From contig OZ220716.1 of NCBI GenBank assembly GCA_965116795.1, forward strand, positions 1,354,503 through 1,418,502: a stretch of 64,000 nucleotides of DNA. Direction: 5' to 3'. Below are positions 52,558-54,192 of this stretch, one piece after another. Numbering within the stretch: position 1 is the first letter of the stretch; every line of letters starts with the position of its first letter. Source of the stretch: Gammaproteobacteria bacterium (lineage in GTDB: Bacteria; Pseudomonadota; Gammaproteobacteria; JAJFKG01). A program made the position numbers and the translations under genes. The notes beneath the pieces are model-generated. The model was not told the DNA's origin and did not search any database. It saw only the letters and a program-made list of their open reading frames with translations.

Positions 52558-52868
52558 AGAATCAGTAGGTTTCTGGCATGTGCATTTTAGCAAAAAGATG
52601 GTGCGCCACTGTCTGTGGGGTGCCCATTATCCAAAACGGTATATGAGTGAGATTTTGGTAAAAAAATGGCAAAAATACAGAGAAAAGAGGGTTTAAGGTG
52701 GTTAGCACGGTACACGCTCGGTACACGAACACAGCCGAGGTGTAAAAAAATACTCAGTCTGCCTGTGGGTAACTCCGACCAACCTGCTGGAGAGTAGGTA
52801 AAAACCTTATTAAAATCATATGGTTATGAAAAAAGCATTTTTAGCAGATTTTGGGTGCACTACTGTCT
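52558..52868. repeat. Conserved unit-end element, copy B (sites B1 52558-52628 and B2 52812-52868, continuing at 53779-53787)
   Basis: Colinear with 11161-11494, for example aaaaaatggcaaaaatacagagaaa and gcatttttagcagattttgggtgcactact. Confidence 0.85.
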
Positions 52869-53778
52869 GGAGCGGCCATCAAGGCTAATGATCTAGCGGA
52901 GTGAAAGTCTCCGCACCGCCAATTACTCGGTTCGGGCGGTTAGCATATCCGATGTATGGGAAGGTAACGACTCATATTCTGCTCGGATGTAAAAGTCATC
53001 GCTGCTGCTTATTACACAGAGAATAAGTGGTGGGTGTAACCAGGATGGCGAGCAAAGACTGGGGTTTGAACGTAAAGAAATGTTTGCAGCCTCGAAAATG
53101 CACCCCACACAGAAGTTGCAGTGTGGAACATTGAAGGTAGTCGACCCTGTGGACAGTAGGGGAAGACCGATGCGCTAGAGGAAGAAACGAGTAAATGCAC
53201 TCTAGTGACTTCCGGGGTATGGAGCCAGACACCAGTTGAAAGATTGTTAGATTAACGATGGGAAGAGCCATTTGCCAGCTGGGGCTAGCAGCAACCAGCA
53301 AAGACTGAGCTGAATAGGGAGACTGAAGCGGCGCAGAGGCACTTGGTTTGACGCATGAGATCGTAGTAGCGAAGAGAGATGGGTAATGCCATCTTAGGGA
53401 TAGGCAAACGATCCCTTGTTTAGGTAACCCCGAAGGCAAGCGAAGGATCTCTCGGCAACTGGTGGGCTGTTGGACTAATGCTACTCAGGACGCAGAACCT
53501 GGAAAAGTAGTCCATTACAACGATGGTCGAGACGTGGAGTAAACTGACAAAGGCAGGGGTGCATACAAGCTAGTGTTTAAGCTTCGTCCTTGTCAGGAAG
53601 GCTGCATGAGGAAAACCGGTGTCGCCAACCGTATTCGGGAAATCCGACCGTACGGGATGAAAGCGGGGGCCTATCGAAACGTGTATCAGGGTAGAACTGT
53701 GAACCCACTTTGCAAATCGAAAGGGCAAAGCTGGAAACCCTCTGCCTACAATAGCGCGCGCGATATTTCTATCCAGAC
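52869..53778 (+). ncRNA. ORF-less group II intron (~910 nt)
   Basis: D5-like aaccgtattcgggaaatccgaccgtacggg at ~53627-53656; 3' end ...ccagAC; short D4 stem at 53544-53596; EBS1 ggacagtag (53151-53159) pairs with the 5' exon ctactgtct; removing it restores the conserved site. Confidence 0.85.
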
Positions 53779-54192
53779 ATGGCACGCACCACCTTATATC
53801 GTTGAATTTGTAATAAATATTTTTATCATTATAATGTTTTGCAGCTTCAAAGAGTTGTGTGCGAAGCACAGAACTTGGGGTTGATGAATTTCAGTGATTT
53901 TCTCGGATTTATTGAGTTCAAAATCGCTATTCCTCTGAAAAATGTGAGGTTCAGCAGTTTGTCTGTAGTCATGAGGCGCTACGGAAATTTTGTTACAATC
54001 CTACTTTCATAATTTGGAGAGTATGCGATGACAGTAGCCCCATTATGGTCTGCCGCATCAAGACTGACAGACCCACACCACTGGCCAAGTTTAAAGCAAC
54101 TAGCATACACCGCTAATGTGGTGTGGAAAAGACTTGTTTTATCATTTGAGCTAATGAAGGTTTGGTGGAGAATTCTACTTGTTAAGATTTCC

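Follow-up and report, generated by a model that had tools for sequence, protein, structure and literature searches.

Insertion of group II introns into attC sites, nesting in other introns, mobilisation of ORF-less introns in trans and shifted 5' ends are already known (excerpts of PMC4424553, PMC2882425, PMC2504315 and PMC8919778, with further sources, also in excerpt, in PMC12350094, PMC9203015, PMC12584367 and PMC7923331), and the precedent for trans mobilisation is found in the excerpts of PMC2882425 and PMC4424553. According to the excerpted parts of a 2015 review (PMC4424553), ORF-less bacterial group II introns are rare and nearly always lie beside a related intron bearing a reverse transcriptase (RT), and few of them are expected to have been overlooked unless their domain 5 (D5) is unusual. 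The intron lineage described here, named X, fits the exception made in these parts of the review, since it gives no match to the Rfam model RF00029 and has members in three phyla. Full-text literature searches turned up no account of the lineage or of an intron homing into serine-integrase att junctions, and an earlier listing is possible.

The window analysed is a stretch of 64,000 nucleotides (contig OZ220716.1, positions 1,354,503 to 1,418,502) from the genome of a Gammaproteobacteria bacterium, a single 2.45-Mb contig designated G000; positions without prefix refer to the window. It holds one copy of X:

52869..53778, plus strand: ORF-less group II intron X1, 910 nt, identified by copies, fold and covariation

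X1 starts with GGAGCG and ends with AGAC, and its excision joins ...GGGTGCACTACTGTCT to ATGGCACGC without target duplication. Two further genomic copies, X2 and X3, lie at G000:1436038 and 1106108. The three copies are 94.5-95.6% identical, all start with GGAGCG, end with CCAGAC and lie between ACT(G/T)TCT and ATGG, again with no duplication, at an identical insertion point within one family of sites. The boundaries and the atypical GGAGCG 5' end proposed in the initial annotation were therefore borne out by the two further copies. The rejoined site had been described as one base off two neighbouring site copies, which holds for the copy at 11467, while the copy at 56266 differs by two bases. 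With eight RT sequences as queries tblastn gave no credible match in X1, X2 or X3 (best E 0.006), and the longest sense-strand stretch free of stops has 78 codons; in the absence of an intron-encoded protein (IEP) no ORF class is assignable to X. A search with Infernal models of D5 and D6, suggested at the outset, returned no RF00029 (D5/D6) match at E<=10 and nothing at gathering level, but a sub-threshold match of domain 1 (D1) to RF02003 (E 8e-6, 35.6 bits where the gathering score is 49). Support from Rfam by itself is weak, and D5 and D6 are supported by fold and covariation. Contigs from four of the 13 listed sequencing runs, which can show presence and not absence, contained no joint skipping the intron, and a scan for promoters and terminators upstream of X1 stayed at chance level.

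All six domains of X1 fold, D2 and D4 by folding only. The elements outside D1 and two tertiary contacts are as follows:

52872..52873, plus strand: epsilon, intron nt 4-5, pairs with 52981-52982; 16 of 16 cells paired
52920..52924, plus strand: alpha, pairs with alpha' at 53114-53118; 87.5% paired with no double change, hence weakly supported
53266..53349, plus strand: domain 2, by fold; covariation not counted
53357..53451, plus strand: domain 3, by fold; 8 of 12 counted pairs change on both sides
53453..53625, plus strand: domain 4, two hairpins in about 170 nt, without an ORF; the 3' hairpin is kept in relatives
53626..53659, plus strand: domain 5, with AAC triad at 53627-53629, 2-nt bulge and 5-nt GAAAU loop
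53665..53774, plus strand: domain 6, with an inserted stem at about 53689-53747 and bulged A at 53771

In a model drawn by hand from X1, whose counts of paired cells are inflated by three rows of near-identical copies and whose double changes come from distant members, eight D1 sequences give a paired share of 93.3% of 450 cells, with both partners altered in 42 of 60 pairs, and for D3, D5 and D6 the respective values are 98.6% and 10 of 27 pairs. None of 500 shuffles reached the score of the D1 model and slid controls gave about 40%. D5 alone is 98.9% paired in nine rows and forms the hairpin with triad and 2-nt bulge seen in group II introns; the AAC-type start noticed earlier is thus confirmed, and the same triad occurs in D5 of other introns, several of them with an RT ORF. 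The branch-point A53771 is bulged in D6 at position -8 and the 3' end AC fits the group II AY. Epsilon, canonically at intron nt 3-4, is found at nt 4-5 with one compensatory G-C to A-U double change (in the relative G191), which indicates that the odd 5' end is a lineage trait consisting of one extra base and not decay. The alpha' element occupies a terminal loop as in IIE/IIF introns. Domain 4 had been given as a stem of about 50 nt without RT; the lack of an RT stands, and the quoted stem is part of one of the two hairpins. Neither GUGYG at the 5' end nor an AGC/CGC triad is present in X, and as altered 5' ends are described within the group II class in the excerpts of PMC4424553, we did not treat GUGYG as defining. 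Together the six-domain fold, the covariation among relatives and the lack of an RT establish X1 as the ORF-less group II intron that had been proposed. The register G/GAGCG...GACA was rejected, as it would restore a minority variant of the site and break the host D5 loop in a Mycobacterium twintron. The linker J2/3 (53350-53356), which usually ends in GA, has the sequence G(G/A)CGCAU in each of the six full-length members of the lineage and might covary with the AAC triad.

The target is read by three exon-binding sites:

52855..52859, plus strand: IBS2, exon positions -14 to -10
52862..52868, plus strand: IBS1, the last 7 nt of the 5' exon
53099..53103, plus strand: EBS2 (UGCAC), best window at 31/36 in six elements
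53151..53157, plus strand: EBS1 (GGACAGU) in the d3 loop, with the delta U at 53150
53220, plus strand: EBS3 (U), pairs with the 3' exon +1 A (53779)

EBS1 pairs with its cognate exon at seven of seven positions in all seven elements examined (X1, X2, X3, Niallia, Mycobacterium, G174 and G191), and at only 1-4 of seven with non-cognate exons, which represent different targets. In X3 it reads GGAAAGU, the C-to-A change standing opposite a T variant in X3's own site. EBS2 emerged from an unbiased scan of D1 (about 53097-53103) at 31/36, where permuted exons reached at most 28 and none of 60 scored as high; the AGUUG loop, tried as EBS2, was dismissed because it is conserved across different targets and fits alpha'. 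EBS3 tracks the +1 base, with U facing +1 A in X and Mycobacterium and A facing +1 U in G191 and G174. Pairings that covary with the exons, together with precise insertion, are those of a group II intron. The earlier count of nine pairs for 53151-53159 describes a complementarity that exists, but the AG at 53158-53159 belongs to the d3 closing stem and EBS1 is 7 nt long. The pairing assigned to the preceding U53150 with the first A of the 3' exon (delta-IBS3) was rejected, since U53150 does not follow the +1 base (G191 has U at both places) and U53220 does. EBS1 alone matches 709 places in the genome, whereas the 13-nt programme of EBS2, EBS1 and EBS3 has 11 empty genomic matches, all 11 within the site family. 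The word 'programmed', used for this intron from the start, is hence justified, and by more bases than first counted, as X3 also shows by an EBS1 that changes with its site.

Relatives of X were sought by pattern and BLAST searches. Three further full-length members were recovered, in G191 (837 nt) and on plasmids of Niallia and Mycobacterium riyadhense. G174 holds a copy with an internal deletion and Bacillus F19 a 5' piece, and there are 3' pieces in G316, G116, Cupriavidus KK10 and G041, on the last of which no conclusion depends. The lineage thereby spans Proteobacteria, Firmicutes and Actinobacteria. None of the six full-length elements has an ORF, every member that retains a 5' end starts with GGARC, every D5 present carries the AAC triad, and the short D4 is common to the relatives, its segment beside D5 being conserved without an RT in three further fragments. 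The lineage is rare: the family pattern was present in five of 400 other genomes of the same class and in none of 400 genomes of the same phylum, five further genomes and 221 genomes of another phylum, and no matches came from two metagenome patterns, from the viral patterns or from a phage collection. A broad D5 pattern hit 119 loci in genome contigs, and the matches listed were other AAC introns sharing only roughly 30 nt of D5. In Niallia and Bacillus the element is lodged in D1 of a class E-like intron, in Mycobacterium in D5 of another intron; the nested full-length members on the Niallia and Mycobacterium riyadhense plasmids (L147:1864-2696 and L148:1720-2707) are unannotated. Five relatives in all (Niallia, Bacillus F19, Mycobacterium, G116 and G191) lie in or near introns with class E/F-like RTs. 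Had related copies inserted at unrelated sequences, the initial annotation would have abandoned its reading; the three X copies do share one site, while the relatives occupy unrelated sequences, each matching its own EBS1. The att programme is consequently local and not a family trait.

A weight matrix of the target site gave 35 hits in the genome, 34 of them within 1.057-1.555 Mb, and these 34 members form the site family in which all three X copies lie, in agreement with the proposal of a conserved multi-copy target. The site copies of the window and the gene that they bound are:

11467..11510, plus strand: left-end junction of the prophage in the window, att-like and empty, a perfect target with the T variant
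52600..52640, plus strand: inner site copy 254 bp upstream, with a different core
52854..53810, plus strand: interrupted att-like junction, left arm at 52854-52868, resuming at 53779
54821..56143, plus strand: WD40-repeat gene in the cassette between the intron-bearing site and the site at 56266
56266..56310, plus strand: empty att-like junction closing the WD40 cassette
56510..56552, minus strand: inverted inner site copy, a perfect empty target

The junction is built on the dyad ATGGC[AC]GCCAT with a predicted central dinucleotide AC at 53784-53785, and X enters between -6 and -5 from AC, that is 5 bp from the predicted crossover and leftward of the dyad centre, not at the centre of the site as first stated. 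The site shares only ACGCCA with the 3' end of tRNA-Glu, which runs into the right arm common to many site copies. Among these the arms are reassorted at the core, and inverted inner copies carry a GTG(C/T)ACC-like motif with a 5-bp shift between arms. A 5-bp motif shift between attP and attB is a trait of serine integrases, and att sites of large serine recombinases are imperfect dyads centred on a dinucleotide and have only a very short stretch in common with attB. The dyad, the very short tRNA identity and a cognate large serine recombinase on the element that tracks the site sequence are all found here. A left junction was found at tRNA-Glu. At their right ends both arrays of the genome close with truncated units near IS66, and no attR carrying recognisable chromosomal sequence turned up; the att assignment hence rests on the left junction, the dyad and the tracking of recombinase clades. 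On these grounds we take the site as the probable attachment junction of some ten prophages that stand in tandem at tRNA-Glu and are served by large serine recombinases. The initial reading of a cassette site is refined: effector-like cassettes lie between some copies, but the site is most likely a prophage att junction and not integron-type. In G001, G002 and G191 the site pattern occurred at control level only, and in viral sequences there was one chance match, inside a gene. Inner site copies lie at most prophage ends, 250-290 bp away, in direct orientation at the right end and inverted at the left; they have the 5-bp-shifted motif and a 4-bp core that varies (52600, 56552 and equivalents such as G000:1311010, 1438678 and 1499744).

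The first array consists of about ten related lambda-like prophages in tandem, with site copies at the unit junctions and around cassettes. Two such arrays with eukaryote-like repeat genes were observed, at G000:C1:1057088-1555000, beginning at the 3' end of tRNA-Glu, and at 2057788-2260000, beginning at that of tRNA-Ser; the second has the same design, another left arm without IBS1, and no X. The arrays contain 11 long ORFs of the resolvase family, eight in the first and three in the second, and the single one scanned has Resolvase, Recombinase and Zn-ribbon domains, as in a large serine recombinase. The recombinases that apparently serve the arrays are located several kb inside each unit. 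Their identity is 80-93% within one arm type, 76-88% within the other and 84-93% in the tRNA-Ser array, against 59-72% between groups. The recombinase clades follow the arm type, unlike the capsids, which are 92-98% alike. None of the four tyrosine-integrase matches lies in the first array or after tRNA-Ser, and related prophages near tRNA-Ala and tRNA-Met have tyrosine integrases instead. X1 occupies the right end of the window's prophage, which has lost its recombinase module at an IS66. Small WD40/ankyrin cassettes that are bounded by direct att-like sites and lie inserted between prophages (53786-56284; G000:1433166-1438391, 1493842-1499480 and 2114414-2116664) were possibly captured or shuffled by the phage recombinase. 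We also noted a palindromic, MITE-like repeat with many genome copies at 54437-54629, upstream of the WD40 gene in its cassette, and an inverted block at G000:1198000-1213000 that contains the right end of a prophage and three reversed site copies.

Three RTs are encoded in the genome: an intron RT of 532 aa, a class E-like intron RT of 457 aa located in prophage 2 (G000:1139100-1140470, intron L002) and a 368-aa RT (L003:1207-2313, G000:1803.9-1805.0 kb) with no detected intron RNA. The class labels derive from N-terminal motifs and from 34-40% identity between L002 and four fetched relatives. The 368-aa RT was discarded as a partner of X because Rfam found no intron RNA beside it. Likeness between X and L002 is confined to 42 nt of D3. 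The search for RT-encoding relatives, also suggested initially, found no RT-bearing member of the X lineage and no cognate RT. An RT fragment in G116 was not accepted as proof of one, for it may belong to a host intron, and four of its top relatives that were fetched lack similarity to X, their D5 being canonical or the sequence truncated. Judged by architecture, the class E-like RT of the genome is the best candidate, and help in trans from it is likely. Other non-autonomous introns were noted as well. L002 has five internally deleted derivatives, four of them identical, with EBS1 retargeted (G000:1257343, 1345424, 1435151, 1483672 and 1498586); these derivatives are mobile, two of the four identical ones occupy the att half-site that X enters, 12 nt upstream of the insertion point of X, that half-site is the best match to their EBS1, and one derivative lies directly upstream of X2. 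A third non-autonomous family has three near-identical copies of about 870 nt (G000:147764, 1319490 and 1444811), with a decayed RT start and about 70% likeness to the L001 intron over 520 nt.

In our judgement X is probably an ORF-less IIB-type (class E/F-like) intron with a 13-base match to the left arm of a serine-integrase att site, spread by retrohoming with a borrowed RT. It would be transcribed by read-through from an upstream phage gene, spliced, and reverse spliced into an empty arm on the lagging-strand template; the cDNA would come from an RT acting in trans, with the class E-like one as the most plausible source, and each new prophage integration would offer a fresh target. All X copies are on the plus strand in the interval from the skew minimum at about 620 kb to the maximum at about 2.0 Mb, where this is the lagging-strand template; the placement fits endonuclease-less homing, and three copies give it no statistical weight. 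With 11 perfect targets unoccupied, X is slow, stalled or selected against, and it looks stalled or slow now.

The same empty targets, along with the failure to find a cognate RT, would suit a single old insertion into a prophage end followed by DNA copying (duplication, gene conversion or recombinase shuffling) of a real but immobile intron. The array is indeed heavily rearranged, with its arms reassorted at the core, patchwork recombination between homologous prophage ends could copy intron DNA, and X1 and X3 share a left-arm type that is 91.7% identical over the last 60 bp. However, the introns are 94.8% alike and the 240 bp upstream of X1 and X3 only 82.4%, the upstream flank of X1 is closest (91.2%) to an intron-free site, X2 stands behind a different left arm, and the right arms of all three copies differ. 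Flanks more diverged than the introns and differing arms favour two or three homing events over one DNA duplication; the fit of X3's EBS1 to its own site variant and compensatory pairs in Ic1 among the differences between copies point the same way, and we regard the old insertion as unlikely. Distinctly less probable again is that the lineage moves without a dedicated intron RT, by protein-free reverse splicing with copying by another RT or by host repair. Such a route would explain a long ORF-less history, visible in all six full-length elements and in the RT-less fragments that keep the D4 segment beside D5, and protein-free reverse splicing into DNA is reported in vitro for another intron in the excerpts of 10.1101/2024.08.31.610620. 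The relatives, however, are found repeatedly in or near introns with class E/F-like RTs. To our knowledge RT-independent homing in vivo is without precedent, which we also counted against this route.

Retrohoming with a borrowed RT, the reading that we prefer, has a consequence for the prophage junctions. Splitting an att half-site is expected to block binding of the recombinase, and 910 bp placed 5 bp from the crossover would part most of the left half-site from the core and so stop recombination. Locking of the junction, raised as a possibility initially, is thus predicted as a side effect of X insertion. That the intron is instead kept as a domesticated switch, locking chosen junctions and fixing effector cassettes or defective prophages, has the smallest share of our credence. 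X occupies three of ten cassette-side or inner junctions and none of 11 plain phage-phage junctions, and a second non-autonomous family entered this half-site in two of its four identical copies, as such a switch might predict; the bias is not significant, however (p about 0.09), the equivalent cassette junctions at 1433166, 1493842 and 1497123 are empty, and the 11 empty perfect targets argue against an active locking system. Moreover, the lock is not switchable, because splicing restores the RNA and not the DNA.

Taken jointly, the observations raise a broader reading, to which we give somewhat less than even credence: X would be an undescribed, constitutively ORF-less lineage, marked by GGARC and AAC and invisible to RF00029, which crosses phyla on borrowed RTs, retargets its 13 bases to self-multiplying targets, namely other introns elsewhere and serine-integrase attachment sites here, and switches off att recombination. 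X offers a compact natural ribozyme in which three exon-binding sites are readable and retargetable, it adds probable prophage att junctions to the recombination sites colonised by introns, and with it one can test directly if an intron is able to freeze such a junction.

Among the described systems, the group IIE/IIF introns as excerpted from Nagy et al. 2013 (PMC3753933) resemble X in structure, with alpha' in a terminal loop, an extra d3 internal loop, a 5-nt D5 loop, IIB-type EBS1, EBS2 and EBS3 and an AY 3' end. X differs from them in lacking an IEP, in its GGARC start, in the shift of epsilon by one nt and in its AAC triad; it is 910 nt long, compared with 450-700 nt for the IIE/IIF ribozyme, and undetected by RF00029. 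As the structural traits are present while a clade E/F IEP in D4, GUGYG and the length of 450-700 nt are not, we do not file X as a member. With the group IIC-attC introns, in the account excerpted from PMC4424553, X shares insertion at a multi-copy site of a site-specific recombinase; in contrast to them it reads 13 nt including EBS2, its inferred target is a serine-integrase att site and it has no ORF. A place among the IIC-attC introns, which have a short EBS1, no EBS2 and an attC target, is contradicted by the 7-nt EBS1 with EBS2 and by an array without tyrosine integrase. The Thermosynechococcus elongatus introns mobilised in trans (Mohr et al. 2010, PMC2882425, in excerpt) are similar in their ORF-less copies, retargeted EBS and preference for other mobile elements, but they descend from a closely related parent that bears an ORF and resides in the same genome; for X such a parent is missing from G000, and its ORF-less relatives span three phyla. 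Finally, the LPJP1 phage introns are likewise ORF-less and in phage DNA, and the excerpts of PMC12350094 propose an RT acting in trans even at 40-50% identity; introns of that type are, in the same excerpts, mostly in phage genes, whereas X lies in the attachment junction itself.
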